This document shows, one piece after another, positions 22,882 through 42,998 of a DNA stretch of 64,000 nt (position 1 is its first letter; each line of letters opens with the position of its first letter). The translations under genes and the position numbers were made by a program. The notes below the pieces were generated by a model, which worked only from the letters and a program-made list of their open reading frames with translations, was not told the DNA's origin and did no database searches. Source of the DNA: a virus; IMG/VR virus record IMGVR_UViG_3300033156_000439, positions 17,824-81,823 of that record. One strand, written 5' to 3'.

Positions 22882-23875
22882 TCGGGATACAGATCCTTGG
22901 AAAGTAGGTGCTCCGAGTGGTGAAGACGAGAGTGATGAGTCTTCCAGAACTTTTAAGACTACACACGCGTTAGAGGTGGGTGGACCATCTCAAGAAGACT
23001 GGGAATTGTATTTGACAAGTCCTCCAGCATTTGCAGCAGTTGAAGCCGTCACCTTTGCTGTTCTCTCTGCTGGTTTTGAAATTCATGGTGAGAGTGAGCA
23101 AATTAGGGAAAGATACACACGGCGCTTTGATAAAGTATTTCCAAAGCTTTATTCTGTTATGCGAGACGCTTTAGTATTTGGCGACAGTTATTCGAGAATC
23201 CTCTTCGGGAGGGATAACCATTTTACTGATATTGAAGTTTTATTTCCGCTCAATGTAGTAACTCAGAATGGTAATTACTTTGTACGAGAAGGCGGGAAAC
23301 TTGTTCGCGTCAAAAATATTTGGCACTTTCAAGCTATGGCTCGTACAGATTCCTCATTTGGCATATCAATGATAGGTGTAGCAAGACAACCTCTTAAGTG
23401 GAAGAAGGAAATTGACGAGAGTGTCCACGAGGGTATTATCAGACACGGTTTTGCGAAATATCACATTCAGTGCCTTCCTGACAGACGAGGACTTTATCCC
23501 GATGAAAATAAGCTCAAAGAATTGGAGAGACAATTTAGAAAGATTCACGTTGGTCATGAGTTTGTTTCGACAGATAAGGTTAAAATTGATCCAATTGACA
23601 CGTCTGGATTTCCAGCTCTCTTAGACTATCTGCAATATTACACGAGTCTCGCTGCAACCGGCTTAATGGTTCCGGCTGAAACTCTTGGACAGGGTATAGC
23701 AACTTCACAGTATGCAACTGCTAAAGTAAGGATGGAATTCTTCCTCAAGAATACTATTCCTTATTTCCAAAGAGTCCTTGAATGTTCCATTAATGATAAT
23801 CTCATGGGAGAACGAGCTGAGGGAGCTATATTTAAATTAAATGAGCCTAAAGAAATTTCGTATAAGACAGGATGA
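22715..23875 (+). CDS. Portal protein (start uncertain, probably near 22870)
   Basis: Follows TerL; RDALVFGDSY, FGISMI, GLMVPAETLG and IPYFQRVLE resemble portal motifs. Confidence 0.8.
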   Translation: MVLKEEHMTTLWTRWLLPPWDSNDILMKKKLQIVGERLVENGRSIWKKVLGQLYGDRDTDPWKVGAPSGEDESDESSRTFKTTHALEVGGPSQEDWELYLTSPPAFAAVEAVTFAVLSAGFEIHGESEQIRERYTRRFDKVFPKLYSVMRDALVFGDSYSRILFGRDNHFTDIEVLFPLNVVTQNGNYFVREGGKLVRVKNIWHFQAMARTDSSFGISMIGVARQPLKWKKEIDESVHEGIIRHGFAKYHIQCLPDRRGLYPDENKLKELERQFRKIHVGHEFVSTDKVKIDPIDTSGFPALLDYLQYYTSLAATGLMVPAETLGQGIATSQYATAKVRMEFFLKNTIPYFQRVLECSINDNLMGERAEGAIFKLNEPKEISYKTG

Positions 23876-24303
23876 TTCACGATACATTTACACCTTTAGG
23901 ACGAGAGAAAAAGGATATATTTCACGATAGGATTTTAGTAGAGAGTGGGGACATGTTATATGATTCCACATCCCAAGGTGTTCCCATTTTCATACCCCCT
24001 AATGTTCTGAAAAATGCTCGTATTCCTAAAAAGTTACCATTTCAGATTTTTCACAATGGAAAGGAAGTTGGGGAAGTTAAAAATATTCGATGGGATGGTA
24101 GAGCGCTTAGAGGAGATATTCATGTTTACCCTCAACACAATGAAGAGGTAGTTAGAGAGCTTTTGAGGGGAAATCATGGTTTGTCTATGCGCTTCTCTTC
24201 TATTGATGAGGATTATAAAACCTATACCTTAATTAAGGACTTGACGTTGGAGCATTTAGCTCTTGTTCCAGCTCCAGCGTCGCCGTCTGCAAGAATAGTG
24301 TAA
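23872..24303 (+). CDS. Capsid maturation protease 1 (HK97-type, minimal)
   Basis: FHNGKEVGEV, GLSMRF and LEHLALVPAPASPSARI; lies between portal and MCP. Confidence 0.75.
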   Translation: MIHDTFTPLGREKKDIFHDRILVESGDMLYDSTSQGVPIFIPPNVLKNARIPKKLPFQIFHNGKEVGEVKNIRWDGRALRGDIHVYPQHNEEVVRELLRGNHGLSMRFSSIDEDYKTYTLIKDLTLEHLALVPAPASPSARIV

Positions 24304-24333
24304 AATTCTACGAAAGAGATAAGGAGAAAAGAA

Positions 24334-25188
24334 ATGGGTGAATTAGCTGATAGGTTAAAAGAATACGTCGCTAAGGTGCAGACCCACGAACTCAGTGCGT
24401 CTGATGATATACGACGACTAACGCAGAAAGCCTATTATAACGCTGTCATGGCTGGAGCTAAACGAAGGGAATTCATGAGGAAGATATTACCTGTTGTCAA
24501 AACAAGTTCACATAGAGTGAGAGTATTCACATCTAATGCGAATGGATATGCTTCAAAAGGAGCTTATAAGGGTGAACCTCCTATTTTTCATCCTAAATAC
24601 ACAAGCGTCGATGTGGTCACCGAAAAAGCTTGGACTTTACCTCTCGCTCCAAAAGAATTGGTTGAGGACGCAGAATTTGGCTTAATAGAGAATGAGGTTT
24701 CATTGGCTGGTATGCGATTGGAGAACACTTTAAACCAGGATGCAATTTCTACTTTAATAGATAGTGCTGATCATTCTGTAACATGTAGCATAGCATCTTC
24801 AGTAACGGCAATAAAAGACGCTTGTATTTATGTTGCAAACTCTCAATTTACTCCAACCCATTTGATTGCCAATCCATATTTCTTCTTTTCTGCTATGGCA
24901 ACTGCACAGTCACCTTTAATGTATAATGAGGAACAGGGTGGTCCTCTTGATATGAAATTCCTTGCTGTGACTTCAAATGGCAATAAAAATTGGAGATGGG
25001 AAAACGCAGGAGATGTCGGAGCAGTAGTGTTAGATGCTGAAATGGCAGCACTGATCCTCATGAAGGAGGATATAACAGTGAAAAAATATTCTGATCCTCT
25101 CAATGATTTACGTGGTGCAATAGTAGAAATGAAATACAAAGTTGTAGTAAGAAAACCCAAAGCTATTTGTATAATTAAACATGATTAG
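24334..25188 (+). CDS. HK97-fold major capsid protein 1
   Basis: ELVEDAEFGLIE..RLENTLN, PTHLIANP, C-term DITVKKYSDPLNDLRGAIVEMKY..KPKAI; paralogous to 42012..42998. Confidence 0.8.
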   Translation: MGELADRLKEYVAKVQTHELSASDDIRRLTQKAYYNAVMAGAKRREFMRKILPVVKTSSHRVRVFTSNANGYASKGAYKGEPPIFHPKYTSVDVVTEKAWTLPLAPKELVEDAEFGLIENEVSLAGMRLENTLNQDAISTLIDSADHSVTCSIASSVTAIKDACIYVANSQFTPTHLIANPYFFFSAMATAQSPLMYNEEQGGPLDMKFLAVTSNGNKNWRWENAGDVGAVVLDAEMAALILMKEDITVKKYSDPLNDLRGAIVEMKYKVVVRKPKAICIIKHD

Positions 25189-25197
25189 GGGAGGAAA

Positions 25198-25875
25198 ATG
25201 CGAACAATTGTTCTATTAGTAGCTCTTTTAGTATTATGTCTCGTTCCGCTTTCTCAAGCAGCCCTTTCCAGTGTGGTCACGCTTAACGCTACGGACGCGT
25301 CAGGGATTAATCACGAGTTGTATTACATTGATTTCCGAGAAGACTTGGATGAAGGAGTGATTTATAACTCAGAGAGCACTGCTGATCGTGGAACCGTTTT
25401 ATTCAAACAAGAGGCTATGAGTGCTGGTAATGCCATCATGGTAGCCACAAATTATACCTATTTTGAAGGACGTGCTTTAATATCAGGTGCATCTTTAGTA
25501 GAGAATATGGGCGGAGTCAATGTTCACAGTGCCAATTACACATTAGGTGTGGTAGGTCTAAAAGGAACTTCCAGTTCCAAATTAGCTGTGGCTTCTGCTT
25601 CGAGTATCTCTCCCTACAATGTGCAGTATCAGTATAGCGTTTCGGGAGCAAATGGAGGCGCAGGGATTGGTGCTGCTGAAGTAAGTAACACAGGTAAGAC
25701 CCATGCAAAAACAACAATAAGAGATGCAAAACAATTTGCATTGTCTGGTGAGTTGAGTTGGTCAGTACCAAAACCCGCTGGAGGAATAGAAGTACCAAAT
25801 ACAGACATATCACATTTGTGTGTATGGGCTCAGGAGAGTCCTGCATATCCTATCTTTCCAGGAATAGGAGCGTGA
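25198..25875 (+). CDS. Secreted or surface protein with signal peptide
   Basis: MRTIVLLVALLVLCLVPLSQA signal peptide; Gly/Ser/Ala-rich beta-type body. Confidence 0.7.
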   Translation: MRTIVLLVALLVLCLVPLSQAALSSVVTLNATDASGINHELYYIDFREDLDEGVIYNSESTADRGTVLFKQEAMSAGNAIMVATNYTYFEGRALISGASLVENMGGVNVHSANYTLGVVGLKGTSSSKLAVASASSISPYNVQYQYSVSGANGGAGIGAAEVSNTGKTHAKTTIRDAKQFALSGELSWSVPKPAGGIEVPNTDISHLCVWAQESPAYPIFPGIGA

Positions 25876-25876
25876 A

Positions 25877-26872
25877 ATGAAAACTCCTCTTTCCTCTATT
25901 TTTAATTTTGGAGCAATTCCCTCTCCTTGGGATAAAAGGGACGTTATATACGCGGCTCTTACTTCAAAAGAGAAGCCAGAGGTATTTAGTCTTAAGAAAT
26001 ACCAAGGACCGGTAGTAGATCAAGGTTCTCGACAGATATGCGTTCCTTGTGCGTTGTGTGCAATTGTAGAGTCAAAGCAATTTTACAATACTAATTTGTC
26101 CGAATGTTACATTTACAAGCGTCGTTCCCATAAGGGAGACGGTATGGTGCTGAGGAACGCTCTCAAAATTATGCAAAAGGAAGGCACTTGTCAAGAAATG
26201 TGCTTTCCGTTGTCTACGTGTCAAGAACGATGCAGTGAAAGTTCAATTAAAAAGAATGCTCTGTCTTATAGGATAGGAGAATATCACAGAGTATTCAATG
26301 ACATTATTGGCACAATGTTTACACACAAATTACCAGTGTTTGCAGCCGTTCCCGTGTATGATAATTGGTCCTACGACGCTTGCATACCCATGCCCTCTGG
26401 TGAATTCTTAGGCTTTCACGCTATTACGATTGTAGGATATGACCTCACAAAGAAATATTATGAATTCAAAAACTCTTGGGGAACAGAATGGGGAAACGGG
26501 GGATATGGGGAGTTGCCTCTCAATTATCCGATAGCCGAAGCGTGGATAGTTGAACCAAAACAGGGTAGTGACAATAAAGATTTAATTCCCGACGATGTAA
26601 CTATAAAGAATGCGATATGTGGAATGTCCATTTTCGGACTTGGTATTGAGCTTGAGATTACTGTTCCTTGGGATTGTACCGTAAAACCTAACTTCGGGAT
26701 ATTCCGGTTTCCACGAGCCCTCCATAGAGGGACGAATACGATCATGTTTCGAGTTCCATTCAAGAAGGGTTTACAACCCTTGAGCTTGACCTTTAAACAC
26801 AGAAACTCGTTAATTGAAATGTCTGCTACTCTTTCTAATACAATTCAATTGAGTGAGTGGGAAAGAATTTAA
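25877..26872 (+). CDS. Papain-like (C1) cysteine peptidase
   Basis: DQGSRQICV (Gln/Cys), FHAITIVGY (His), FKNSWGTEWGNGGYG (Asn). Confidence 0.9.
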   Translation: MKTPLSSIFNFGAIPSPWDKRDVIYAALTSKEKPEVFSLKKYQGPVVDQGSRQICVPCALCAIVESKQFYNTNLSECYIYKRRSHKGDGMVLRNALKIMQKEGTCQEMCFPLSTCQERCSESSIKKNALSYRIGEYHRVFNDIIGTMFTHKLPVFAAVPVYDNWSYDACIPMPSGEFLGFHAITIVGYDLTKKYYEFKNSWGTEWGNGGYGELPLNYPIAEAWIVEPKQGSDNKDLIPDDVTIKNAICGMSIFGLGIELEITVPWDCTVKPNFGIFRFPRALHRGTNTIMFRVPFKKGLQPLSLTFKHRNSLIEMSATLSNTIQLSEWERI

Positions 26873-26878
26873 ATTAGA

Positions 26879-29293
26879 ATGAGCCTACGAGTAACATTTC
26901 TCGGAGTGAGTGCAGAAGCAAAGGGACACTCTTGCATATTGATTGAGTCCCCTAAAGCGAAAGTTCTTTTAGAACCCACCCAGCGGGTTAAGGATGTTGA
27001 TGCTGTTATAATTACGGATATAGACAAAGATGAATATAGCGAATGGAAATATTATGCAGACCAAGGAGTTCCAATATATTCAGTAGCAGCAATAAAGAGA
27101 TGGGCAGAAGATGATGAGCTTCGTGAGCACATTCAAGTGATAAGCAACAAGTTCTCAATTAAGGGTCTCCACATGAATTGGCTAAAAGCTAATGTCGCTC
27201 CTCACGAACCAGCAGGCGGAGTTAGAATCCCAAGTTACGATGTAGATATAGTGCCTGAACTTCCACCTTATATTCCTCAAGCTTTAATAAAGGCATTCGG
27301 ACTGCCACCGTCTCACATCATTGTTGGTATTGGCTCTTATAAGAAGTTTGATCACAAAATATCATTTGAGGATTTTCTTCTTCAACTTGAGAAGACTCGG
27401 AGTGGCAAGGAAAAAGGTCTTTTATCTATTACTCTTACAAATTTCAGGAAAGATTTAAAGGAACATAAAAGTGAAGTCCTTAGAAGACTGAAAGAACGAT
27501 GGGATATACCCGTCTTTTGGGCGGAGAAGGACATGATACTTGAGTTCTCTAAGAGTGGACAGGTTGAACGAATAAATGGAACTTCTGGTGAATTAGAAAA
27601 GCTTTACCTTAAAGAATTCCTTTCCAAAGGAGTGGATTATGACATTAAACATGTTAAAACAAGGTGGAAAGAATGCATTGCAGATTTGCGATATTTGGCT
27701 AACAACGCCGTGCCTCGCTTGAAAGCAGGAAAGAAGTGGGGTGAGTGGACTCTTGATGCGTGCTATAAATATTTTGCTGCTTTGATAGATGCTCTTCGCA
27801 GTGTGTATTTTACACTTGTTCCTCCCACTCAACCTGAGCTATACAAAATAGAGCATCCTGATAAAGATCCTAAGGAAGCACTTAAGACTTCTTTCTGGCA
27901 GACATATTTAAAGGCTAAGAAATACATGAAGTCCAAACCTCCCAAGGATGAGGAAGAATTAAAAGAGTGGAATAAGAAGCGAGCAAAAATAATAAGTGCG
28001 TCTGAAGAAACAAAGAACCTTAAAGTTGGATACCTTTCTAAGGCTAAACCATATTTACGATTCTTCCTTCCTACTATTCATGAAGATATTGCGAGTGCTG
28101 GATGGGATGAAAAGAAGCTCCTTATTGATGTTAAAGCTGATGGTCTTAGAATTACTCTTTGGAAGTCAGGCGGTAAAGGGTACGTGTTTGTAGATCCAGA
28201 AGAACTTAAGCACAAGTCTCCATTAATAAACAAATATATTCCTCAGATAGTGAGAGAGATCGAAGAACACTTCCCTGATAACACAGCTCTTGATGGGGAA
28301 CTTTATGCAGCAAAAGGCAATGAGGCTTTACATAGAACTGTCATAAATGGAATTATAAATACTAAGCTTCCTCCCGAAAGATTCATACCTTATGCGTACG
28401 CATTTATATTTGATGTCCTTGTTTATAAAGGGAATGATGTTCGAGATAAATCTCTTGAAGATAGACTGAAACTGCTCCAAACTTTCAAGTCCACTTCACA
28501 TATCAAAATAGAAAAAGTAAGCAAAGTTGCAATACCAAGCTATTCTGGGTACATAGTAGACGGGAATAACAAGAGTATGATAGATAAAGCCATTCATTTG
28601 ATAAAAACTTCAAAACACGGTCTCCATAAGGGATTGCAAGAGGGTGTTATGATTAAAACTTTAGATCATTTCTACGAAGTCCCTACGAATAAAGGAGCAG
28701 CTAAATGTAAGTTTTGGCACGAAGTTGACACTGTGGTGCTGGATAAGAAGTTGGTAAAAGGACAAACTGATGTATGGAATTATTATCTGGGCATTGAAAT
28801 ACCAGCCGGATATGCTAAGATGATGCTTGATGATACTCAGGCGTATAAACGGGTTCGATGTTTGTATAACGGTCATCTTTACAAAAAGAAAGAGTGTCAA
28901 GATTATTTAGACAGGCGAGGTGCTCGATTCTTTATGGAATACGGAAAGTCGGATAACACAAAAATTAAGTGTGATGTTGGAGACGTCCTTAGAGTGTCCT
29001 CTGAAGAAGTCCTTTATAATGCAAACGAAACTCATCCAGAATGCCCCTATTATACAGGATACATAAATAGGGCGATGGAGCCAGTGCCAGAAAGAAAGAC
29101 TTCTGATAATTTAGTCGTGTTGCACCGTCTTGCTTTACTTGAACCTCAGCGGATACCCTTGGAAGTCTTAGCGAAATGGAAAGAAAATATGCCTCCAGAG
29201 ATAAAGAAGTATTGCGACTATATCAGGTCCTTATCTACTCCAAAACTAATTCAATTTTATAATGCACTAAAGAAGGTTCAAAATGAAGAGTGA
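26879..29293 (+). CDS. ATP-dependent DNA ligase with a degenerate N-terminal metallo-beta-lactamase-like domain
   Basis: Ligase motifs I KADGLR, III LDGELY, IIIa FIFDVL, IV EGVMIK, V KCK; N-term LRVTFLGV..HSCILIE..VDAVIIT lacks HxHxDH. Confidence 0.8.
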   Translation: MSLRVTFLGVSAEAKGHSCILIESPKAKVLLEPTQRVKDVDAVIITDIDKDEYSEWKYYADQGVPIYSVAAIKRWAEDDELREHIQVISNKFSIKGLHMNWLKANVAPHEPAGGVRIPSYDVDIVPELPPYIPQALIKAFGLPPSHIIVGIGSYKKFDHKISFEDFLLQLEKTRSGKEKGLLSITLTNFRKDLKEHKSEVLRRLKERWDIPVFWAEKDMILEFSKSGQVERINGTSGELEKLYLKEFLSKGVDYDIKHVKTRWKECIADLRYLANNAVPRLKAGKKWGEWTLDACYKYFAALIDALRSVYFTLVPPTQPELYKIEHPDKDPKEALKTSFWQTYLKAKKYMKSKPPKDEEELKEWNKKRAKIISASEETKNLKVGYLSKAKPYLRFFLPTIHEDIASAGWDEKKLLIDVKADGLRITLWKSGGKGYVFVDPEELKHKSPLINKYIPQIVREIEEHFPDNTALDGELYAAKGNEALHRTVINGIINTKLPPERFIPYAYAFIFDVLVYKGNDVRDKSLEDRLKLLQTFKSTSHIKIEKVSKVAIPSYSGYIVDGNNKSMIDKAIHLIKTSKHGLHKGLQEGVMIKTLDHFYEVPTNKGAAKCKFWHEVDTVVLDKKLVKGQTDVWNYYLGIEIPAGYAKMMLDDTQAYKRVRCLYNGHLYKKKECQDYLDRRGARFFMEYGKSDNTKIKCDVGDVLRVSSEEVLYNANETHPECPYYTGYINRAMEPVPERKTSDNLVVLHRLALLEPQRIPLEVLAKWKENMPPEIKKYCDYIRSLSTPKLIQFYNALKKVQNEE

Positions 29294-31328
29294 ACTCATA
29301 AACACTCAGAATGTAAACACTCTACTCGAATTGGTAGAGTCGGAACTCAATTATAGACATGCGAAGAGATTACACATTCCAAACAGAGGAATATATCTAC
29401 CCTCGCCACACGCTAAGCTTATTCACGACGGTCACAAGACAGTAATCCTCAAGAATAGGAAATTTAAGATAGCAGGTGTCCCATTCCTTTACTGTGACAA
29501 TAAATATGCTTATGGTGTATTAGAACTCAAAGAACCAAAAGAAATTAAGACAGAAGGACAATTTAAGGCTCTCCAGAAATATCACAGAGTAACCAAGAAA
29601 GAGTTTGAAAATTGGAATTGGACCCTACCTCTTTACGCTTATTACATTAAAGAGGTTCACAATTTTAAGAAGCCTGTAAGGATTAACCTTCCTCAAGGTG
29701 TGCAAAACTTTATTAAGAATCCAGTTCAGTATTTAGAAGACAGTGAGTATCCATTTACTGGCAAGCATGATTTGTCTCTTTCTCTACAAGTAAACTGTCC
29801 CAATTGTGGGAGATGGATATACATTCCACACTCTCCAATTCCTTCTAATTGTCCTTACTGTGGTTATCAATTGAAAGAGCGAGAAGAAGAAAAATCACGA
29901 ATGGTTCCTCTTCCAAAAGAAGAATACTCTCGAATAGTTAAGGATTATCCTCTCAAACCCTTACCTAAGAAATATTACAAAGACCAGAGGGGAGGAGTAG
30001 CTTGGTGCTTTGCTTCTCCTCGAACTAAAGTCCTCACGGAAGGTGGCTGGAAACCTTGGAACAAAATTTATCCAGGTGAGAGAGTCTTAACACATAAGGG
30101 CAGGTTCATGCGAGTCACTCGAAAGGACGTGTTTGAAGGCATTTATGACTGGATTAAGGTTCACCTTCAGTTTGATAACATAAAGGTCCTTAAGTACGAT
30201 ATTCGAGTGACTAAGAATCATCCCTTCCTCACGACCGAGGGTTGGAAAGAAACAAAAGACTTAAAGGTTGGTGACAAGATTGTTTCAAAAACACCCAAGC
30301 GTTGCCTCAACTGTCGTGCCCCGATTCCACTTTCATGGAACGCAAAAACAGACTTTATGTTTTGTAGTGATGAATGTGCACGAAACTATGAGTGGACAGA
30401 GGAAAGTTTGCACACTGAGTACATTGACAAACAAATTTATGATAATCCTCTTGCTGATGTTACGGTTACAGTTGTGAAAATCGAAAGGATTAGAATTCCA
30501 AAAGACTCCACTGTATGGACACAAACTCATGCTTGTTCTTTAGAAGTGGAGGAAGATCATTCGTACATGACTCCTTTGGGATTCTCTCACAACTCACAAT
30601 GGCATATAAGAGGCATAAAACCAGAGGATAAGGAAGCGTATGATAAGGGTGAAATTTCCTTCGAGAAGATGATTTTGCATCATAGTCTTCATCAAGACCT
30701 GAGATGGAAATTAAACGGTATATCAGTCCTTCCTCAATGTACAATTACTGAAAGTGACATGAAGTCCTATGTGAGAGGAATGCTTGGACAACTTAACCCA
30801 GAACAGAAGGGTCCTGCCAACGTTCAAAAAGTCAAGGTTATTCCCAAAGTCGAGATTGCTAAACCCACAATGCCAAAGTCCAAAATGAAGGAATTCCTTA
30901 TAGACGAGGAAGGAGCTAAGCTTATTAATAAGATGATAATTCATGAGACCTCTTACTGGATCAGTCCTGGAGAGGTTGGGAGTTTGCCATACACTTGGGC
31001 TTACATGGGAACTATATGGACGGGGAAGGTGGCAACGGGGGTTGAGAGAGGAGATTTTCACGAACTCTTCTTTTATCCAGATAAGGATTTACCTGAGCCA
31101 AATAAAAAATTCTTTGACGGACGGTTCATACTAAGAGCCTTTAGAGGTGAAGCAGCACGAGGGGGCAAAACATGGTGGTTGTGGAAATCCACGAAAAATC
31201 CTTATCCACAAAATCCTTGGTGTTATTGCGATCAGGGTGAACATGAGGTCCTTCCTCTTGACAAGATAAAACACTGGGGTCACGAGAACTATCCTGAATG
31301 GAAAACAAGAAAGGATGATTGTGAATAA
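29283..31328 (+). CDS. ASCH-like + Zn ribbon + intein + LigD-phosphoesterase-like fusion
   Basis: GIYLPSPHAKLIHDGHKT..AYGVLEL (ASCH-like); CPNC..CPYC; intein; spliced SQWHIRG..SLHQDLRW resembles the PE QxH..HxDxR motif. Confidence 0.65.
   Translation: MKSELINTQNVNTLLELVESELNYRHAKRLHIPNRGIYLPSPHAKLIHDGHKTVILKNRKFKIAGVPFLYCDNKYAYGVLELKEPKEIKTEGQFKALQKYHRVTKKEFENWNWTLPLYAYYIKEVHNFKKPVRINLPQGVQNFIKNPVQYLEDSEYPFTGKHDLSLSLQVNCPNCGRWIYIPHSPIPSNCPYCGYQLKEREEEKSRMVPLPKEEYSRIVKDYPLKPLPKKYYKDQRGGVAWCFASPRTKVLTEGGWKPWNKIYPGERVLTHKGRFMRVTRKDVFEGIYDWIKVHLQFDNIKVLKYDIRVTKNHPFLTTEGWKETKDLKVGDKIVSKTPKRCLNCRAPIPLSWNAKTDFMFCSDECARNYEWTEESLHTEYIDKQIYDNPLADVTVTVVKIERIRIPKDSTVWTQTHACSLEVEEDHSYMTPLGFSHNSQWHIRGIKPEDKEAYDKGEISFEKMILHHSLHQDLRWKLNGISVLPQCTITESDMKSYVRGMLGQLNPEQKGPANVQKVKVIPKVEIAKPTMPKSKMKEFLIDEEGAKLINKMIIHETSYWISPGEVGSLPYTWAYMGTIWTGKVATGVERGDFHELFFYPDKDLPEPNKKFFDGRFILRAFRGEAARGGKTWWLWKSTKNPYPQNPWCYCDQGEHEVLPLDKIKHWGHENYPEWKTRKDDCE
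30006..30593 (+). mobile_element. Mini-intein (196 aa) with an internal Zn-finger insert, no homing endonuclease
   Basis: Block A CFASPRTKVLT, block B VTKNHPFLT, block F/G SLEVEEDHSY..FSHN followed by Ser+1; insert CLNC..FCSDEC. Confidence 0.9.
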
Positions 31329-31359
31329 TTTTAGAATTTGACTTTTCTGTTTCGTAGAT

Positions 31360-35817: not shown

Positions 35818-35846
35818 TTCTAATCTCAAAGATAGGGTGAAAAAAT

Positions 35847-36673: not shown

Positions 36674-36674
36674 A

Positions 36675-36899: not shown

Positions 36900-36933
36900 T
36901 ATTTCTATTGTTCCTTCTTTTAGGTGGTGCAAT

Positions 36934-37716
36934 ATGCAATTTTCAATAATAGTTGCGACAAACCGTGGACCTGAACTCTTAAAATATTTATTTGTCTCTA
37001 CACACCCTGAGAGTGAGCTCATAGTAGTTGACTCTTACTATAATGAAAAAACAAAAGACTTCCTCTCTCGCCAAGAGGGATATAGACAGATAGTCTACGC
37101 TCCACCTGAACACTCGCCCTTTAGGTGGCATAGGGACTTTTCTCAGTCTCTTAATACAGCACTATGTCTCGCTGAGCATGAATATATTGTACGTGCAGAC
37201 GACTACATAGAATTCAAGGAGGACTTCTTTGACGTTGCTGAGATGGACATCAAGAGTTACCCAGAGAAGACTCTTATAATAGGTCAAAAAGCGCAGGAGT
37301 ATAACAAGGAAGAGAAGTTCATTGACTACATGTCACAAAAAGGAATAGGCGGAGATTTCAGATATGTGAACATTGAGAATCCAGCATTCACATTCTCTTT
37401 TGGAGTAGCGCCTCTTCAGTTATATCTCGACCTTAATGGTTATGATGAGAGGTACGATTCTGGTTGGGGTTTTGAAGACAGAGACTTTCTTCATAGAGCA
37501 CTAAAAGCTGGCTACGTTGCGATGCTCGATAAGCTACTTATGGGATATGGTCATGCTCATAAGCCAGCTTGGGAGACAATTTCAATGCCTCATATAATTT
37601 ATGAGGTAACAAAGACAGAAATAGAGAGTGGCAAAGTTTGGGCTTATAATCCTTATAAACTCAAGGATAGACGGGAGCAGAAACTGCAGGAGAAAGAGAA
37701 ATGGATAGTAAGATAA
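36934..37716 (+). CDS. Glycosyltransferase family 2
   Basis: FSIIVAT, ELIVVD, ADDY and NGYDERYDSGWGFEDRDF. Confidence 0.88.
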   Translation: MQFSIIVATNRGPELLKYLFVSTHPESELIVVDSYYNEKTKDFLSRQEGYRQIVYAPPEHSPFRWHRDFSQSLNTALCLAEHEYIVRADDYIEFKEDFFDVAEMDIKSYPEKTLIIGQKAQEYNKEEKFIDYMSQKGIGGDFRYVNIENPAFTFSFGVAPLQLYLDLNGYDERYDSGWGFEDRDFLHRALKAGYVAMLDKLLMGYGHAHKPAWETISMPHIIYEVTKTEIESGKVWAYNPYKLKDRREQKLQEKEKWIVR

Positions 37717-38639
37717 GCATGATTCAGATACAGACCACGAGTATTTGTTCCGGGAGGTGTATCATTTGTCCTTACAAAGACAGTTGGCTACGAAAGGCTC
37801 ATGACTATATGAGTGATGAAGATTACGTTCACGTCTTAGAAGAGATTAAGTCCTATCTTGGTGATTACAAAGAAAAGCTTCCACTTTACTTGATGAATGA
37901 TCCGTTTGCAGACAAGAAAATAATTGAGCGAATGGAGTTAGCTTATCAATATTTCCCTAAATGCAAATTAGAGTTGTCCACCAATGGTTTGCTTCTTACT
38001 GAGAAATTGTCAAAGCGAATAGTAGAAACTGTAATTCACTATAATGGCGGGGGTACATTTGAACTCTGGATTTCTTTTCACGGAGCAAGTAAGCAAACAT
38101 GGGAGTTCCTTAATAATTTATCGGGTAAATTTGAAAGAGTCCTCAAGAACATCGTTACGTATCTCAAGATAAACAATGGTCAGCTTAGAACAGTTATTAA
38201 CTCAGCGGGAGGAGCGTCTCGTGATGGTTCTATGTTCTTTTATTCACAAAGTGCTTGGAAGCAATTCTTAAACTCTATATTTCAAACTTATAACCTTCCA
38301 TTGGAGAACGTTCATTTTCGATACTATACCTTTCATAACAGAGCTGGAAATGTGAGACTGTGTAATTGGGATGGAACAGAGTATTATCGAGAAATAGGTC
38401 CCGAGTATCCTTTTGAGTGTTGGCGTTTTAGAAGTGGTATTCACATTCTTTACAATTTAGACGTGATAGCTTGCTGCATGGATTGGAACAGAGAGGCAGT
38501 TTTTGGAAATCTCAAAACCCAAACTCTAAAGGAAATATGGGAGGGTGAAAAACGACGCATTTTTGTCGATATGGCGTCGGGTAGAAAACCTTCTCCTAAA
38601 GACTTTATATGCAAACGTTGTATGTCACCGGGTGGGTGA
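37701..38639 (+). CDS. Radical SAM protein with SPASM/twitch domain
   Basis: CSGRCIIC (CxxxCxxC), LSTNG, C-terminal C..ACCMD..GNL..CKRC. Confidence 0.9.
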   Translation: MDSKISMIQIQTTSICSGRCIICPYKDSWLRKAHDYMSDEDYVHVLEEIKSYLGDYKEKLPLYLMNDPFADKKIIERMELAYQYFPKCKLELSTNGLLLTEKLSKRIVETVIHYNGGGTFELWISFHGASKQTWEFLNNLSGKFERVLKNIVTYLKINNGQLRTVINSAGGASRDGSMFFYSQSAWKQFLNSIFQTYNLPLENVHFRYYTFHNRAGNVRLCNWDGTEYYREIGPEYPFECWRFRSGIHILYNLDVIACCMDWNREAVFGNLKTQTLKEIWEGEKRRIFVDMASGRKPSPKDFICKRCMSPGG

Positions 38640-39547
38640 GTAGTATGGATAACGTAACAGCGATTGTGAAAACCTTTATGCGTCCTGAAAAATTCGAGTT
38701 TTGTTTGAAAAGCTTAGTGTCTGCTGGACTTAAGAAAATCATAGTTTCTTTTGATGGTCCTGAAGATTATCTCGAAAGACACAGAAGGGTAGTGGGTAAA
38801 TATCAGAGAAATGTAACCATTCGTTTCTTAGAGCTTCCTTTCAATGTTGGACTCGCAGCCGCAAGAAATAGAATGATAGAAAGAGTAAACACTGATTACA
38901 TTCTTATGATTGATGATGATAATTACGTTCCGCTTCAAGTCTTAGAGATGGTACATGGATTATCACAACTTCCTGAAGATGTAGGGGGAGTAGCTATGGG
39001 ATGGCTGCCAGCTTTTAATCCTCTTCCACAGATGGATGCTTGGGACTTCGAGATAGTAAACAGGATACTCTTTAAGACATGGCGAAGTGATAAGCAACGT
39101 GCAATTATTAATGGCAACGCTTATATGTTTCCTTTTGATTTTATTCCTAATCAAGTTCTCTTCAGACGAAAGCTCTTTAATGATGTGCAGTGGGATGAAC
39201 ATTATATCATAAGCAGGGAACATGAGGACTTTTATCTGACATGCAAGAAAGAAACAGATTGGAAATTTGGGATATGCACATCTATTTACTCCGTACATGA
39301 CCCAGGTGGAAGCAAAGAGTATATTCGAGAGTATCGTGCTGGAGTGGAGTGTGATAAGTCTGCCGAATATTTCCTCAAGAAGTGGAACCTGAAAGGTATA
39401 GCTCCCCAAAGATATAGTGATGATTATACGTCTTTGTTTTATGATGCTCCTTGGCAAGTAAGACGAAACCTCGATAAGAATAGATATATAAGATGGAAGT
39501 TGGAGACGAATCAGGCTTTACCTGATGACGTCTTCCAAACCCGTTAA
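38609..39547 (+). CDS. Glycosyltransferase family 2
   Basis: VTAIVKTFMRP, NVGLAAARN, MIDDD and EHEDFY; start probably 38645. Confidence 0.88.
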   Translation: MQTLYVTGWVSSMDNVTAIVKTFMRPEKFEFCLKSLVSAGLKKIIVSFDGPEDYLERHRRVVGKYQRNVTIRFLELPFNVGLAAARNRMIERVNTDYILMIDDDNYVPLQVLEMVHGLSQLPEDVGGVAMGWLPAFNPLPQMDAWDFEIVNRILFKTWRSDKQRAIINGNAYMFPFDFIPNQVLFRRKLFNDVQWDEHYIISREHEDFYLTCKKETDWKFGICTSIYSVHDPGGSKEYIREYRAGVECDKSAEYFLKKWNLKGIAPQRYSDDYTSLFYDAPWQVRRNLDKNRYIRWKLETNQALPDDVFQTR

Positions 39548-39549
39548 GT

Positions 39550-40461
39550 ATGTTAGATAAGGAAGAAATAAAAAACTTAACAAAGAAAAGTATGGAGAAG
39601 GCTTATCTCCCAGTGCCTTCTCATGGGGGACTCAAGACTGCAAAGTTCACTCTTGAGGACGTCCAAAGATGTTTTAGGCAGCCCGCTCTTCTTCGAGACC
39701 TCGTATATTTGGTTGGAGGAGTAGCGGTTCACGGCAAGGGTAACGATGTGGACTTAGTAATACGTGGAGATGACTTATCGGAACCTCAACGTGAAGCTCT
39801 TTTGTTCCGTCTTTATCGAGCATTTGGTGATTACTTCAATATACCTTACGATATGACACCTAAGCATTTACACGTAACCTTCAACAACTATGGTCCTTTT
39901 ACAGACCACGTTCTCTTATATCACTTAGCAATTGTTCCTTCTGAAGACCGAAGTGTCCACGAAATGGAAGCCATGAAGTCCGTATCCTCCAATGGTGAAT
40001 GGATAGTTTATGGTTATGGTTCGATAGACGCAATTGACCTTGAAGGTGATGAAATAACCATTGATGCTCTCAAAGGCATGTGGGAGGAAATGCAAAAGAC
40101 CCCGAAGAAGTACTGGAATGTCATGAATGAACATGGTGGTGTACAAGTAGGAGAAATCCTCCCAGAGTGGAATGGGCTCAAAACTCACGTTGACGAAAAA
40201 GGGTTCTTTGTAATAGTGAAGCTCCGTAAGGATATAGACGCAGCACGAAGGATATGGGAAGCAATTCATTCTGACAATGAAGCAGAACGTATCAAGAGTT
40301 TCTCAATTCACATTGAGTATCCTGGAGGTGTGCAAAATTGTACAGAAAAGGTCTGTGACAAAAACAGATGTTGGCGTAAGATAACCAAGGCAAGATTCCT
40401 TGAGTTGAGTTTCACAAGAAATCCTGCTAATCCGTTATGTATTTTTAAACCCGCGTTCTAA
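39550..40461 (+). CDS. Nucleotidyltransferase-like domain fused to capsid maturation protease 2 (HK97-type)
   Basis: N-term YLVGGVAVHGKGNDVDLVI (Pol-beta NTase motif); C-term VYGYGS..DLEGDEI, NEH..VG, KSFSI and ELSFTRNPANP. Confidence 0.8.
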   Translation: MLDKEEIKNLTKKSMEKAYLPVPSHGGLKTAKFTLEDVQRCFRQPALLRDLVYLVGGVAVHGKGNDVDLVIRGDDLSEPQREALLFRLYRAFGDYFNIPYDMTPKHLHVTFNNYGPFTDHVLLYHLAIVPSEDRSVHEMEAMKSVSSNGEWIVYGYGSIDAIDLEGDEITIDALKGMWEEMQKTPKKYWNVMNEHGGVQVGEILPEWNGLKTHVDEKGFFVIVKLRKDIDAARRIWEAIHSDNEAERIKSFSIHIEYPGGVQNCTEKVCDKNRCWRKITKARFLELSFTRNPANPLCIFKPAF

Positions 40462-40482
40462 CTCTAACATTTAAAATTAAAG

Positions 40483-40737
40483 GTGAGCGAGATGCAAGAG
40501 CTTTATATAGGAGAGAAACCTTATGACAATTATTTAAGGGCACTTGGAGATTCCCAGAGTGTTAGCGTGTTGGCAAGAGGCAAAAATATCAAGAAGGCAA
40601 TAGATGTAGCACTCATGGCTCAGAGGCTAAGTCAGTTTGAAATTAGGAATGTGGTTCTTTACGATGAGAAGATGACAAGTGATGATGGTGAACGTGAATA
40701 TTATGTTAGTGCAATAAGGATAGACTTAAGTCGTTAA
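40483..40737 (+). CDS. albA: Alba DNA/RNA-binding chromatin protein
   Basis: YIGEKPYDNYL, VLARGKNIKKAIDVA and VSAIRIDL match the Alba signature. Confidence 0.9.
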   Translation: MSEMQELYIGEKPYDNYLRALGDSQSVSVLARGKNIKKAIDVALMAQRLSQFEIRNVVLYDEKMTSDDGEREYYVSAIRIDLSR

Positions 40738-40760
40738 TTATATTATAGAATATAGAGGAA

Positions 40761-41396
40761 TTGAAAATGGCAACTCAAGAAGAGGAGTTTGAGGAATTCT
40801 TTAAAGAATTGGAAGAGTCGATGAAAGAGGATGCAGAGAACGAGGAAGAGAAGTCAGAGGAGGAACCGACTGAGGGTGAGAGTGAGGGTGAAAAAGCTCT
40901 TACAAAGGCAGATGTGATTAAGATAGTCAGGGACGAAATAAAGACATTTTGGAAAGGTGTCTTAAAGGGCAAATACCCACTTCCAGCAAAGTATCCCTAC
41001 GCCAAGTATCCATACGCAAAGTATCCCTACGCCAAGTATCCTGCTCCAGCTTCAAAGAAGAGCTTAGACGAAGGAGACTTCGTACCAATGTATCCCGCGT
41101 TTGTGGTAGTTCCACAGATGCAGATGCAGACAGATAGTACAAAGAGTAAGGATGTGAAAATTGATTCGACTGAGCAGAAGAATGCACAGACAGACAGCAC
41201 AAAGGATGATGGAAAGGATGACATAATCGAAGAGCAGAAGTCGCAGATAGAAGAGCTCAAAAAGACAGTAGAGGATCTTCAGAAGAAACTCGAAGAGATT
41301 AGTGCTCAGCCAGCTCCTGAGAAAGAGGAGGATGAGGCCAAACCCGATTACGTCTCAGACGTCCTAATTGATGGTGATACAATATCTCGACCTTAA
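40761..41396 (+). CDS. Putative capsid scaffolding protein
   Basis: Acidic, coiled-coil C-term, KYPYA repeats; lies between protease 2 and the decoration/MCP2 genes. Confidence 0.65.
   Translation: MKMATQEEEFEEFFKELEESMKEDAENEEEKSEEEPTEGESEGEKALTKADVIKIVRDEIKTFWKGVLKGKYPLPAKYPYAKYPYAKYPYAKYPAPASKKSLDEGDFVPMYPAFVVVPQMQMQTDSTKSKDVKIDSTEQKNAQTDSTKDDGKDDIIEEQKSQIEELKKTVEDLQKKLEEISAQPAPEKEEDEAKPDYVSDVLIDGDTISRP
40986..41042 (+). repeat. 15-bp tandem repeat encoding (AKYPY)n
   Basis: gcaaagtatccctac gccaagtatccatac gcaaagtatccctac gccaagtatcct. Confidence 0.9.
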
Positions 41397-41570
41397 ATAT
41401 CTCTAAGACAATTCTCAAATTTTACACCATTTGCACATATTTGCGTCTGAGTGCAATTTTACCGTTAAGCATGATAAATTATTCATGGACTTACTTTCAT
41501 TCGCATATAGCGCATATCTGTGCATCTGGTAACATTTCTATTTAAAAGTTTGAAATGAGGTAAATTAAAA

Positions 41571-41975
41571 ATGGCTGAAGTTGAAGATGTGGTTGCTGGT
41601 GCACCAGTCATAGTGACATTCTTGGCTGGTGCAGACATTGAGGCAGGACAGGTGGTGGGCTATGATGTGAGTGCTTCTCCTGATGATATGACCGTCTCTC
41701 CTGCATTACAGGATGGGTATGACACGATACCTGTTGGCGTCGCAGTAGATTCAGTGGCGGAGGATGACCCCGTGCCAGTGGCTATTCCGCCCTCGATAGT
41801 GAGGGTAAGAGCATCAAGTAATGTAACTGCTGGTCAGTTGGTACAGCTCAATGAGAGTGACGCAGGTCAGGTTGAACCTTACAACTCGGGTGATAACACT
41901 TGGGCATTAGGTCAGGCATTAGAAGATATAACTGCAGACTCGACTGGTAGAGTGAGGTTACTCCTCACAAAATAA
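41571..41975 (+). CDS. Capsid decoration/cement protein (DUF2190-like)
   Basis: AGADIEAGQVV, PVGVA, VTAGQLV and LGQALE; immediately upstream of MCP2. Confidence 0.75.
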   Translation: MAEVEDVVAGAPVIVTFLAGADIEAGQVVGYDVSASPDDMTVSPALQDGYDTIPVGVAVDSVAEDDPVPVAIPPSIVRVRASSNVTAGQLVQLNESDAGQVEPYNSGDNTWALGQALEDITADSTGRVRLLLTK

Positions 41976-42011
41976 ATACCTCTATATTAAATTAAAAGAA
42001 GGTAAAGAAAA

Positions 42012-42998
42012 ATGGGTGATTTTGCAAACTTACTCCGGATTGTTAAGGCTGGTGATGATGCTAATCAGAAAAGCTACTGGATGAAAAGACTCAGTAAGGG
42101 TACTCACGAATTGATGCAGGCTTACAACGTGACTGCTGAGCACCTTGTTCGAGAGGAATTATACAAAGAGGTGCTACGTGGCGCTGAGGAAGTGCTCTGT
42201 ATGAGAGAGGTTCTCCCAATTTACAGAATGAAGAGGAATGAACTCAGGTTCGTTCTCACAGATGCTCCAACTGGTATGCTTCCACTTGTAGCACCTGGTT
42301 CAAGCCTTCCTGAGGGTCCAGACGTCAAGTTCAAGAGTGATGTTACATTTGTGGCTCAGAAATATGGTGAGAAAGTTGGCATCCCAGAGGAACTCATAGA
42401 GGAGGAAGAGTTCGATGTGATAGAGCTATTAGTTCACAACGAGGGTCGTCGGGCAGAGAACCGACTAAATGACGTAGCAATGAAGGCGCTATTAAACGCA
42501 AAGAGCAGTGTAGAGAGTACAGACAATGTTTCAATAATAGATAGGATAGTGGCAATGGTAAAGAAAATGCGAAAGAACAAGTTTGAACCAGATACCATCG
42601 TAATGACTCCAGACGCGGAGGCAGAGATACTCAAGTATATGGTGGGTGAAACAAAGGTAGCAAATACAACTGGCGAGGCTGGTTATGGCAAAACTGGTGT
42701 TCCAGAGGTATTCAGGACCAAAGAGATAGGCAGACCAATAGTTGGTCTTAAGCCATACGTGTTGTCAAAGGAGGTAGCTGGTGATTCCCTGAGTTGGGGT
42801 GGTGATGATACCAATGCACACATCTGCATCCTTGATAGAAGGATGGCGGGTGGTATTGGTATGAGAAGCGATATAGCAATAAAGAGGTTCGAGGACCCAC
42901 TTAACGACTTGAGAAACCTGAAGATTACTATGAGAATATGTGCAGAGACATTCTTTGCTAATGCGATTGAACTGGGTGACATAGCGAGCCTCTTGTAA
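42012..42998 (+). CDS. HK97-fold major capsid protein 2
   Basis: KYGEKVGIPEELIEEEEFDVIE, PDTIVMTP and DIAIKRFEDPLNDLRNLKITMR. Confidence 0.85.
   Translation: MGDFANLLRIVKAGDDANQKSYWMKRLSKGTHELMQAYNVTAEHLVREELYKEVLRGAEEVLCMREVLPIYRMKRNELRFVLTDAPTGMLPLVAPGSSLPEGPDVKFKSDVTFVAQKYGEKVGIPEELIEEEEFDVIELLVHNEGRRAENRLNDVAMKALLNAKSSVESTDNVSIIDRIVAMVKKMRKNKFEPDTIVMTPDAEAEILKYMVGETKVANTTGEAGYGKTGVPEVFRTKEIGRPIVGLKPYVLSKEVAGDSLSWGGDDTNAHICILDRRMAGGIGMRSDIAIKRFEDPLNDLRNLKITMRICAETFFANAIELGDIASLL

Follow-up and report, generated by a model that had tools for sequence, protein, structure and literature searches.

The window, a stretch of 64,000 nucleotides, lies within an 81,823-base virus genome of Ekchuahviridae type, and all of the open reading frames discussed here were found at the coordinates given in Table 1, on the + strand. 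One long + strand late operon encodes, in order, the large terminase subunit (TerL), the portal, protease 1 and MCP1, the last two making up module 1. After MCP1 come some 14 kb of genes for enzymes, surface proteins and glycosylation, followed by protease 2, a candidate scaffold, the cement protein and MCP2 (module 2), and then by connector and tail genes. The two MCP genes are spaced 17.7 kb apart, and module 2 borders on the tail genes, as the position of the tape measure-like gene shows.

Table 1. Features of the head-gene region, in window coordinates
Feature	Coordinates	Strand	Basis
Large terminase subunit (TerL), single copy	21256..22881	+	phrog_2 E 8.4e-29; Terminase_6C 25.9 bits vs 22.6-bit cut-off
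Portal protein, single copy	22715..23875	+	Phage_portal E 8.7e-9, 35.4 bits, below 39.1-bit cut-off; phrog_9232 2e-7
Protease 1, predicted small prohead protease, S78/assemblin fold, 143 aa	23872..24303	+	Model, fold matches
MCP1, HK97-fold capsid protein, probably accessory, 284 aa	24334..25188	+	Similarity to MCP2; predicted fold
Hypervariable segment of MCP1, codons about 136-225	24739..25008	+	pN
225-aa ORF with signal-like N-terminus, then papain-family (C1) peptidase; accessory insert	25198..26872	+	Peptidase_C1 E 4.7e-14
804-aa ligase-domain protein and 681-aa Hint-domain protein	26879..31328	+	DNA_ligase_A_M E 4.5e-11; PT-HINT 1.2e-5
1485-aa DUF2341 protein	31360..35817	+	DUF2341 E 2.2e-44
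Glycosyltransferase, radical SAM/SPASM enzyme, glycosyltransferase 2	36934..39547	+	Pfam matches
Protease 2, S78 domain (residues about 140-303) after N-terminal domain without assignment	39550..40461	+	Peptidase_S78
Alba-like 84-aa ORF	40483..40737	+	Alba E 6.1e-5, 23.2 bits, below 25-bit cut-off
Candidate scaffold protein, 211 aa	40761..41396	+	Position and composition only
Only long non-coding gap between modules	41397..41570	.	Sequence
Cement (decoration) protein	41571..41975	+	Phage_cement_2 33.1 bits vs 24-bit cut-off
MCP2, major capsid protein, probably core, 328 aa	42012..42998	+	Phage_capsid_4, PHROG, PF25209 in homologues
Tape measure-like tail protein	45801..51266	+	PhageMin_Tail E 3.7e-20

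Single-copy and accessory genes around the capsid modules

The real start of the portal gene probably lies after the TerL stop, and its own stop overlaps the protease 1 start by 4 bases. Only one portal match occurs in the whole genome, and an all-against-all BLASTP of ORFs of at least 60 aa (E 1e-4) returned no TerL or portal paralogue, in agreement with the initial annotation, which had described two capsid modules but one portal and one terminase.

In the block between the modules, the 225-aa ORF after MCP1 begins with a signal-like hydrophobic segment, and both it and the C1 peptidase are missing from the relative G001. In L067, L073, L043 and L071, the ligase-domain and Hint proteins have homologues encoded between a protease 1-type gene and a protease 2-type one. 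The 1485-aa DUF2341 protein is paralogous to a 1716-aa protein at 52217-57367 (DUF2341 2.4e-56), with 29% identity over 465 aa. Small ORFs similar to the Alba-like one occur between TerL and the portal in L045, L067 and L073.

Both a scaffold and a decoration gene had been assigned to module 2. The second of these stands by its Phage_cement_2 match, and the protein is also weakly similar to the HRTV-29 capsid stabilizing protein (E 9e-4). The first is a putative assignment from position and composition: the 211-aa protein is acidic, with KYPYA repeats and a C-terminal coiled-coil-like stretch, its PHROG matches are weak (E 0.007-0.036), and its gene is the most divergent of module 2 (65-76% identity among close relatives). 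A TTTAAAA box in the non-coding gap, about 30 bases 5' of the cement gene, may be an archaeal promoter.

Homology and divergence of the two capsid proteins

MCP1 and MCP2 are homologues with the HK97 capsid-protein fold. A full-length alignment of the two gives 26% identity (E 5e-14) and contains both of the motifs first noticed from the sequence, with DPLNDLR common to the two proteins and ELVEDAEF opposite ELIEEEEF (EL.E..EF). MCP2 matches Pfam Phage_capsid_4 (E 1.3e-5; 26.1 bits, just below the 27-bit cut-off) and a PHROG major head protein (E 9.7e-5), and PF25209 is the precomputed annotation of all 16 of 16 MCP2 homologues. MCP1 itself matched no Pfam or PHROG family; within its family (n=17), PF25209 is matched by 4/17 members and PF05065 by 4/17. 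The AlphaFold model of MCP1 (pLDDT 73.5, pTM 0.75) resembles HK97-fold capsid proteins, the top match being the MCP of Haloferax tailed virus 1 (HFTV1; 8qpq, E 1e-10), and encapsulins rank below viral capsids (E about 2e-7 to 1e-6). The HK97 fold holds for both proteins.

HFTV1 is the closest solved capsid. The MCP of HRTV-29, also of the Haloferuviridae, resembles MCP1 (E 5e-13) as well as MCP2 (E 2e-10), and in both viruses a cement gene precedes the MCP gene, as in module 2. Unlike the virus studied here, these have genomes of 36-38 kb and, in the passages available, only one MCP, which makes up hexamers as well as pentamers at T=7.

Purifying selection acts on all four MCP and protease genes, with dN/dS of about 0.14 for MCP1, 0.034 for MCP2, 0.04 for protease 1 and 0.013 for protease 2. 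The MCP1 reading frame is intact in 10/10 sequences compared. Across these 10 sequences, pN reaches 0.23-0.36 in codons 136-225 of MCP1 versus about 0.03 elsewhere in the gene, while MCP2 is uniformly conserved (pN at most 0.05 in each sliding block). A long helix (112-144) of the MCP1 model precedes the hypervariable segment, which, given the known HK97 topology, would correspond to the axial (A) domain. In the MCP1 family and the MCP2 family alike, every sequence (27 of 27) starts with MG. AU tests of the MCP phylogeny, for which 22 of 38 rows were used, did not reject a single old duplication (p 0.39 and 0.50), nor did they reject a duplication specific to the L045 lineage (p 0.53).

Distribution of proteases and capsid genes among relatives

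The two capsid genes and two proteases first annotated are real, each MCP following a protease of S78/assemblin fold. Protease 2 passes the Peptidase_S78 cut-off (22.2 versus 21 bits). Protease 1 itself has no Pfam match; S78 is matched by 2/9 members of its family (best E 6.5e-5). Its model (pLDDT 81) resembles herpesvirus assemblins, with Z 10.1 to the VZV protease and Z 8.0 to T4 gp21, and against BFVD it returned HK97-family prohead proteases (109 matches at E <=0.001, top E 1.2e-7). The protein looks active, and His61 and Ser105 are invariant in 11/11 aligned sequences of relatives.

The layout had been noted as one reported for Ekchuahviridae, and this proved correct: it was published for the Methanophagales viruses GBV301 and GBV302 (Kukulkanvirus; Laso-Perez et al. 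2023, PMC9894754), whose family is described in the passages available as having two divergent HK97 MCPs, each beside a capsid maturation protease, with other head genes in single copy. The size of the genome here fits the 70-80 kb range given there. P0020 shares 58% identity with MCP1, and a member of its 90% cluster carries the name of the GBV301 capsid protein in NCBI and UniRef. Three full-length records carry both MCPs, namely G000, G001 (71,922 bases) and G002 (80,678 bases), and many fragments share the layout, with module 1 on nine loci and module 2 on five, the flanking genes in the same order. The record studied here has the gene order of G001 and G002 but is distinct from both. Its MCP1 shares 84% identity with the G002 protein and 57% with the G001 protein; for MCP2 the values are 100% and 87%, respectively.

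Every relative examined has an MCP at the MCP2 position, after a cement gene; protease 2 orthologues precede the cement and MCP genes in L043, L044, L045, L046, L057, L067, L071, L072 and L073, and the order protease 2, cement, MCP is found in these and in L069. G004, G005, G006 and G007 gave one MCP match each (profile A4 at E <=0.01, profile A2 at E <=1) in searches that recovered two MCP ORFs from the positive control G003. G004, at 98% CheckV completeness, is a firm single-MCP case; completeness is only 59-87% for G005, G006 and G007, and a second MCP may lie beyond those records. Each of these four has one match to a protease 1-type gene, placed just 3' of the portal. In L067 and L073, a protease 1-type gene lies directly 3' of the portal and is followed by non-MCP ORFs, and the ORF map of L069, with its single MCP, likewise places one after the portal. 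No MCP1 counterpart follows protease 1 in the ORF maps of these three loci. Because protease 1-type genes are kept in single-MCP relatives, protease 1 is not private to MCP1, contrary to the initial annotation, in which each capsid protein had a maturation protease of its own, and to the proteases' description as 'cognate' in the passages of PMC9894754. We infer a conserved partnership of protease 1 with the portal, kept also where there is only one MCP.

In two other lineages, two MCPs occur in tandem. Within 7 kb, L045/G003 encodes, in order, portal, S78, MCPa, S78, cement and MCPb; the matches are above Pfam cut-offs, and no enzyme block separates the modules. In L075, MCPa is followed by a 202-aa ORF, cement and MCPb. 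The L045 pair shares 14/20 of its first residues versus 32% identity overall. Gene content across the relatives thus suggests that protease 2, cement and MCP2 are core and that MCP1 is a sporadic extra copy.

Possible roles of MCP1 in the capsid

We propose that protease 2, the scaffold, the cement protein and MCP2 would form the core shell-building set, which recurs in the same order throughout the relatives examined, with MCP1 an accessory paralogue of some lineages only, its periphery conserved and its axial domain hypervariable. Most likely, MCP1 would be a minor constituent that co-assembles with MCP2 in one capsid; the MG start common to both families and the shared N-terminus of the L045 pair were counted for shared assembly. 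Our best guess for its place is the vertex pentons, as in T4 and mycobacteriophage Jabs. Since protease 1 is also present with a single MCP, its substrate must be one that all these viruses have in common. The core head proteins would be candidates, as would head-packed proteins, for instance the ligase-like and Hint proteins encoded between the two proteases. We give this reading as a whole, including a protease 1 not reserved for MCP1, an even chance of being right. A hypervariable axial domain fits a homomeric MCP1 shell equally well.

In T4, the prohead protease gp21 acts on both capsid proteins, whose genes are adjacent; gp23 forms the hexamers and gp24 the vertex pentamers. With one protease sufficing for T4, hexon/penton precedents leave the second protease here unexplained, and the locus further differs from T4 in its MCP spacing. 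T4 is described in passages of PMC9894754 as having two paralogous HK97-fold capsid proteins, one forming hexamers and the other pentamers. The available description of Jabs gives a T=9 siphophage capsid with two MCPs, in which 80 hexons consist of MCPh (594 aa) and 11 pentons of MCPp (257 aa) (bioRxiv 10.64898/2026.07.24.740622). By that description the accessory copy is the shorter one, as here; unlike here, Jabs is without a cement protein and its MCP genes are adjacent (ORF72, ORF73). An extra vertex protein is not needed in principle, given that HFTV1, in the passages available, makes hexamers and pentamers from one MCP.

Instead of forming the eleven pentons, MCP1 might enter mixed MCP1/MCP2 hetero-hexamers or occupy a special site, for example the capsomers that surround the portal. 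Its gene comes directly after the overlapping portal and protease 1 genes, its periphery is conserved, and the portal vertex of HFTV1 is described as requiring an adaptor protein as well as distinct conformations of the MCP. We nevertheless consider this unlikely, as the experimentally shown cases of two HK97 proteins that we found, in the sources available, are hexon/penton splits (T4, Jabs).

Alternatively, MCP1 and protease 1 might make a particle of their own, a smaller or alternative capsid, an encapsulin-like shell or a decoy, apart from the DNA-filled MCP2 head. In size, MCP1 is like an encapsulin or a mature HK97 subunit; it has no cement or scaffold genes of its own, an adjoining protease gene and a hypervariable exposed domain, and encapsulins, which share its fold, are among its structural matches. 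Encapsulins load cargo through targeting peptides and are not known to have a portal, terminase or prohead protease, whereas MCP1 is encoded within a viral head operon and matches viral capsids better. Protease 1 is kept without a second MCP, so the pair is not self-contained; L045 and L075 hold both MCPs in a single head module; and the paralogues share their N-termini. The suggestion that MCP1 encloses the enzymes encoded after it also fares poorly, for the L045 tandem has no enzyme block and the genes right after MCP1 are missing in G001 or look exported. A separate shell is thus quite improbable, and the encapsulin-like reading is disfavoured.

Very improbable, in our view, is that one module is a dispensable or decaying leftover of exchange between viruses. 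Several relatives are without MCP1, and passages of PMC9894754 suggest that one MCP was horizontally acquired from haloferuviruses, but module 1 evolves at dN/dS 0.04-0.14 with intact MCP1 frames and invariant protease 1 His and Ser, and MCP1 is kept in G000, G001 and G002 although MCP1 proteins are only 57% identical. An assembly chimera of two viruses, for which we found no supporting point, is refuted by the identical order in these three records, by fragments that bridge module 1 and the middle block (L006, L008, L009, L012) and the middle block and module 2 (L013, L016, L017), by an even GC content of 0.38-0.42 over 20-46 kb, and by the circular alignment of two assemblies with which PMC9894754, in the passages available, excludes an artefact.

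A minor shell protein, perhaps that of the vertex, would be the most plausible reading of MCP1. Beyond what the passages of the published account describe, the comparison adds that protease 1 occurs in single-MCP relatives, that MCP1 would be sporadic against a core set of protease 2, cement and MCP2, and that the middle of MCP1 is hypervariable.

Gene order of the head region

With few exceptions, the heads of tailed viruses are made with a single HK97-fold protein and a single protease. The virus described here encodes two HK97-fold capsid proteins (MCP1 and MCP2) and two S78-type proteases beside one portal and one terminase (TerL), all of them conserved and in one operon. This inventory, proposed in the initial annotation, is confirmed by the MCP alignment, the predicted folds of MCP1 and protease 1, and copy counts. 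The portal has one match in the genome, and an all-against-all BLASTP of genome ORFs recovered no paralogue of either TerL or portal; the one further paralogous pair comprises two DUF2341 proteins. Nearly all long ORFs between about 19 kb and 61 kb of the window lie on the plus strand, and GC content is even across the head region (0.38-0.42).

Features of the window in gene order (window coordinates)
Feature	Coordinates	Strand	Remarks
Array of paralogous ORFs of 100-200 aa	90-7600	-	mutual identity 25-60%
Group 1 glycosyltransferase, then 165-aa ORF			upstream of TerL
TerL	21256-22881	+	phrog_2, E 8.4e-29
Portal	22715-23875	+
Protease 1	23872-24303	+
MCP1	24334-25188	+
225-aa ORF and papain-family peptidase	25198-26872		directly downstream of MCP1
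804-aa protein with ligase domain and 681-aa Hint-domain protein	26879-31328		after the papain-family peptidase
DUF2341 protein, 1485 aa	31360-35817		three small ORFs follow
Glycosyltransferase, radical SAM/SPASM enzyme, family 2 glycosyltransferase			after the small ORFs, before protease 2
Protease 2	39550-40461	+
Alba-like ORF	40483-40737		between protease 2 and scaffold candidate
Scaffold candidate, 211 aa, acidic			between Alba-like ORF and cement
Cement protein	41571-41975	+
MCP2	42012-42998	+	followed by small ORFs, then a tape-measure-like protein
Hydrophobic ORF, 51 aa	43074-43229		directly 3' of MCP2; conserved, 94-100% identity in relatives
Second DUF2341 protein	52217-57367		among tail genes

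The region's sole long non-coding gap lies directly 5' of the cement gene and contains a TTTAAAA box, and a T-rich stretch lies 3' of MCP2; these signals would fit a cement/MCP2 unit that is driven separately. The N-terminus of TerL (21256-21450) is cysteine-rich, with weak matches to TRASH/YHS-type zinc ribbons (E 0.003-0.006). The very large DUF2341 paralogues, one between the capsid modules and one among tail genes, share 29% identity over 465 aa and are strongly variable (46-77% identity in relatives). Head fibres and tail fibres, or adhesins, are possible identities for them. The 225-aa ORF, which has a signal-like N-terminus, and the adjacent papain-family peptidase occur in G000 and G002 relatives and are absent from record G001. 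With a dN/dS of about 0.13, this ORF evolves as fast as MCP1.

The window covers bases 17824-81823 of a virus record of 81,823 bases, which has an estimated CheckV completeness of 100% and a 114-base terminal repeat. Module 1 (protease 1 and MCP1) was found in nine loci and module 2 (protease 2, scaffold candidate, cement and MCP2) in five, from IMG/VR records with seven different dataset numbers and with the same neighbours throughout. Several of these loci extend from one module into the middle block, and both MCPs are present in G001 (71,922 bases) and G002 (80,678 bases). These observations rule out an assembly chimera, which the initial annotation had named as a danger to its reading. The dN/dS values of 0.013-0.14 for both proteases and both MCPs speak against decay of either module.

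The two-MCP, two-protease layout is already published. The initial annotation had correctly attributed it to Ekchuahviridae, and the main observation is therefore not new. The description of the ekchuahviruses GBV301 and GBV302 by Laso-Perez et al. 2023 (PMC9894754) gives each of them two MCPs, both accompanied by capsid maturation protease genes, and the other head genes in single copy; it excludes an assembly artefact and leaves open what each of the two MCPs does in the capsid. The family definition combines a genome of 70-80 kb with two divergent HK97 MCPs, maturation proteases and otherwise single-copy head genes, and the virus studied here fits it in genome size and in this set of head genes. 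Its proteins are 55-88% identical to those of G001 and mostly 82-100% identical to those of G002, in the same gene order; MCP1 is 84% identical to its counterpart in G002 and 57% in G001, and MCP2 100% and 87%, respectively. The GBV301 name, given to a capsid protein, is found on one protein cluster only, that of a database homologue (P0020) 58% identical to MCP1, which points to the window as a further genome of the ekchuahvirus group. The HRTV-29 MCP resembles MCP1 and MCP2 to much the same degree and does not tell which of them corresponds to the MCP-1 or the MCP-2 of PMC9894754. For two other homologues, P0024 (MCP1-like, 38% identical) and P0049 (MCP2-like, 59% identical), the longest contig has 130,914 bases in both cases.

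Two related capsid proteins and two proteases

MCP1 and MCP2 align along their whole length with 26% identity (E 5e-14), and the alignment contains both motifs quoted in the initial annotation (DPLNDLR and EL.E..EF). MCP2 scores 26.1 bits against PF25209, whose cut-off is 27 bits, and all 16 of its database homologues carry a precomputed PF25209 annotation. MCP1 itself matches neither capsid family model (Pfam PF25209 or PF05065), and each model matches 4 of the 17 members of its family. Since a PF25209 scan of the genome missed even MCP2, custom profiles were used for MCP copy counts. A model of MCP1 built on a 27-sequence alignment (pLDDT 73.5, pTM 0.75; residues 59-108 of low confidence) has the HK97 fold that the initial annotation requires, with 262 PDB matches at E <= 0.001, headed by HFTV1, HRP29, PhiM1 and HK97. 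Haloferax tailed virus 1 (HFTV1) is the top match (E 1e-10), ahead of HK97 itself and of encapsulins. For MCP2 we infer the same fold from homology. All 27 sequences of both MCP families start with the residues MG, and in the MCP pair of one relative (L045) 14 of the first 20 residues are shared, versus 32% identity overall, a pattern suggestive of one partner shared by both N-termini.

Protease 2 passes the Peptidase S78 cut-off (22.2 bits against 21). Protease 1 has no Pfam or PHROG match of its own, and only 7 relatives turned up when 1.84 billion representatives were searched in full with HMMER. S78 is nevertheless matched by 2 of 9 aligned members of its family (best E 6.5e-5), and the orthologue in L045 reaches 23.9 bits against the 21-bit cut-off. 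The protease 1 model (pLDDT 81) matches the VZV protease (Z 10.1), T4 gp21 (Z 8.0), herpesvirus assemblins (probability 1.0) and HK97-family prohead proteases (109 matches at E <= 0.001; best E 1.2e-7, TM 0.66). At the sequence level, the family profile gave chance-level matches only against PDB sequences, and its hhalign comparison with protease 2 was not significant. His61 and Ser105, which by the S78 motif pattern would be the catalytic pair, are the same in all 11 aligned sequences, three from single-MCP loci among them, and the His motif lines up with its protease 2 counterpart. Both look like active S78-type proteases.

In protease 2, the N-terminal 140 residues (39550-39975) make up a domain of their own, which shows a GG...DVD-type motif. 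This domain is conserved in five loci of relatives (L043, L067, L071, L072 and L073; 32-36% identity over about 300 aa) and not in four others (L044, L045, L046 and L057), where only about 149 aa align. It has no Pfam match and no PDB sequence match at E <= 0.1, and is a candidate nucleotidyltransferase.

Relatives with one or two capsid genes

Distant relatives were collected by a metagenome scan with a joint MCP alignment and by later IMG/VR scans; their MCPs are 23-31% identical to MCP1. Three layouts occur: tandem MCPs, one MCP with both proteases, and the Ekchuahviridae layout, in which the MCPs are 15.5-17.7 kb apart. The window has two paralogous HK97 capsid genes in a single head module, as do L045 and L075, where they stand in tandem. 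In L045, which lies on an 88,015-base contig and whose stretch is also present in record G003, the order over about 9 kb is TerL, Alba-like ORF, portal, S78 protease, MCPa, S78 protease, cement-like ORF, MCPb. The first S78 protease matches the protease 1 profile (E 7.9e-10) and the second matches protease 2. L075 has the order MCPa, 202-aa ORF, cement, MCPb.

In L067 (record G004, 98% complete) and L073, TerL is followed by the Alba-like ORF, portal, a protease 1-type gene, small ORFs, a ligase-like gene, a protease 2-type gene, a cement-like ORF and one MCP; L067 additionally has a Hint-like protein beside the ligase-like one. This is the window's order minus MCP1. Whole-record searches (joint profile E <= 0.01, MCP1 profile E <= 1), for which G003 with its two MCP ORFs served as positive control, found one MCP in each of G004-G007, three of these four records being incomplete. 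Each of the four also has one protease 1-type match. The initial annotation had assigned each capsid protein its own protease; single-MCP relatives that keep the protease 1-type gene do not support this. Two features stay constant in this clade: a small protease follows the portal, and protease 2, cement and MCP stand as a set ahead of the connector genes. Since a second MCP is only optional, ‘each with its own protease’ reads too much into mere adjacency. As the positional counterpart of the relatives' single MCP, MCP2 is taken as the main shell protein.

Protease 2 is often longer in this clade (434-557 aa). In L043, L067, L071, L072 and L073, as in the window, ligase-domain and Hint-domain proteins are encoded within the head module between its protease genes (window 26879-31328; L067 3694-7544; L073 3867-7118); across distant relatives they are conserved at 37-48% identity, and they may be enzymes packaged in the head. 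The Alba-like ORF occupies the TerL-portal interval in relatives (L045 3471-3788; L067 1232-1477; L073 1211-1468), versus the protease 2-scaffold interval in the window. In some close relatives (L008/L036 2110-4595, L037 and L038), the TerL match ends at residue 280 or residue 411 and the portal is preceded by some 1.6 kb of additional DNA, which may reflect an intein or insertion in TerL. The radical SAM gene of one relative (L017 4616-5710; L058 4337-6364) is a 675-aa ORF in which one segment has 34% identity to the Hint-domain protein of the window, and this gene may likewise contain an intein.

The MCP phylogeny called for by the initial annotation yielded a quick tree, with deep nodes that lack resolution. 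AU tests of three groupings on 22 of 38 rows (16 close relatives dropped) rejected no grouping (p 0.39, 0.50 and 0.53); either gain or loss of MCP1, once or repeatedly, would fit. Megablast of window 21000-45000 against a phage collection, from which near relatives may be missing, gave no match, nor did tblastn of MCP2 and portal against phages. TerL matched only distant T4-like and Thermus phage terminases and thus does not show which MCP partners the packaging genes. A profile search of genome contigs with the MCP2 alignment confirmed no relative, and a TerL-alignment scan aimed at a sister family returned close relatives only, plus one match at 22%.

Possible roles of the additional capsid protein

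Across the module loci, Nei-Gojobori estimates of dN/dS are 0.04 (protease 1), 0.14 (MCP1), 0.013 (protease 2) and 0.034 (MCP2); glycosyltransferase rows at 19657 and 38609 (dN above 1) were left out as a presumed artefact of misaligned pieces, and the scaffold has no row because its matches covered <90% of the query. Identity among close relatives is 79-90% for MCP1, 87-99% for the adjacent protease 1 and 94-99% for the portal. In sliding windows, MCP1 codons about 136-225 have a pN of 0.23-0.36, compared with about 0.03 elsewhere; pS is raised too, and dN/dS is about 0.2-0.3. For MCP2, pN is <= 0.05 in all windows. The variable segment comes after the long helix 112-144 of the MCP1 model. 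In the HK97 fold, the axial (A) domain lines the capsomer centre and faces outward, and by this topology the hypervariable segment of MCP1 should be the axial domain. This pattern, variable at the centre and conserved at the periphery, suits a subunit that has to dock into a conserved lattice; a homomeric shell would fit too.

We propose that MCP2, the scaffold candidate, cement and protease 2 would build and mature the shell, that MCP1 would enter the same procapsid as a minor component, and that protease 1 would have a role independent of MCP1. We give this picture as a whole an even chance of being correct. Speculatively, protease 1 may process head-packed proteins such as the ligase-like and Hint proteins. 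The most plausible place for MCP1 is the pentons, a tentative assignment by analogy that we hold less firmly than the overall picture. T4 is a precedent for a penton role of a second capsid protein (PMC9894754), and so is the T=9 mycobacteriophage Jabs, whose 11 pentons consist of a short MCP and whose 80 hexons consist of a long one (bioRxiv 10.64898/2026.07.24.740622). The window's virus likewise has two paralogous HK97 capsid genes, a candidate pair of this kind. HFTV1, the closest solved capsid, differs in having a single MCP, which makes hexamers and pentamers alike and is accompanied by stabilizing-protein trimers; the extra MCP would thus be an addition, not a necessity.

It is improbable, in our estimate, that MCP1 lies outside the DNA-filled head, forming in some lineages a second, small HK97 shell with a fast-diversifying surface that acts as decoy or cargo carrier, and that the two proteases separately divide their work between shell proteins and head-packed enzymes. 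The initial annotation's suggestion of an encapsulin-like MCP1 particle for the downstream enzymes is disfavoured: tandem-MCP lineages lack the enzyme block between modules, the two genes after MCP1 are missing from G001 and one of them looks exported from its N-terminus, viral capsids match MCP1 better than encapsulins do, the HFTV1 capsid needs only one MCP, and MCP1 sits in an operon of TerL, portal, protease 1 and MCP1, unlike a lone encapsulin shell gene with cargo genes and without portal, terminase or prohead protease.

Beyond the published passages, our comparison adds that both proteases are kept in single-MCP relatives, a statement found neither in the excerpts of PMC9894754 nor in a non-exhaustive literature search; that two other lineages have tandem MCPs; and that MCP1 has a hypervariable segment, probably the axial one. 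These three points make the question of what the second set does, left open by that paper, narrower and more testable. What is constant in the clade is the two proteases, not two capsid proteins; the core shell protein would be the cement-linked MCP2, and the extra MCP comes and goes, varying fast in what should be its axial domain.
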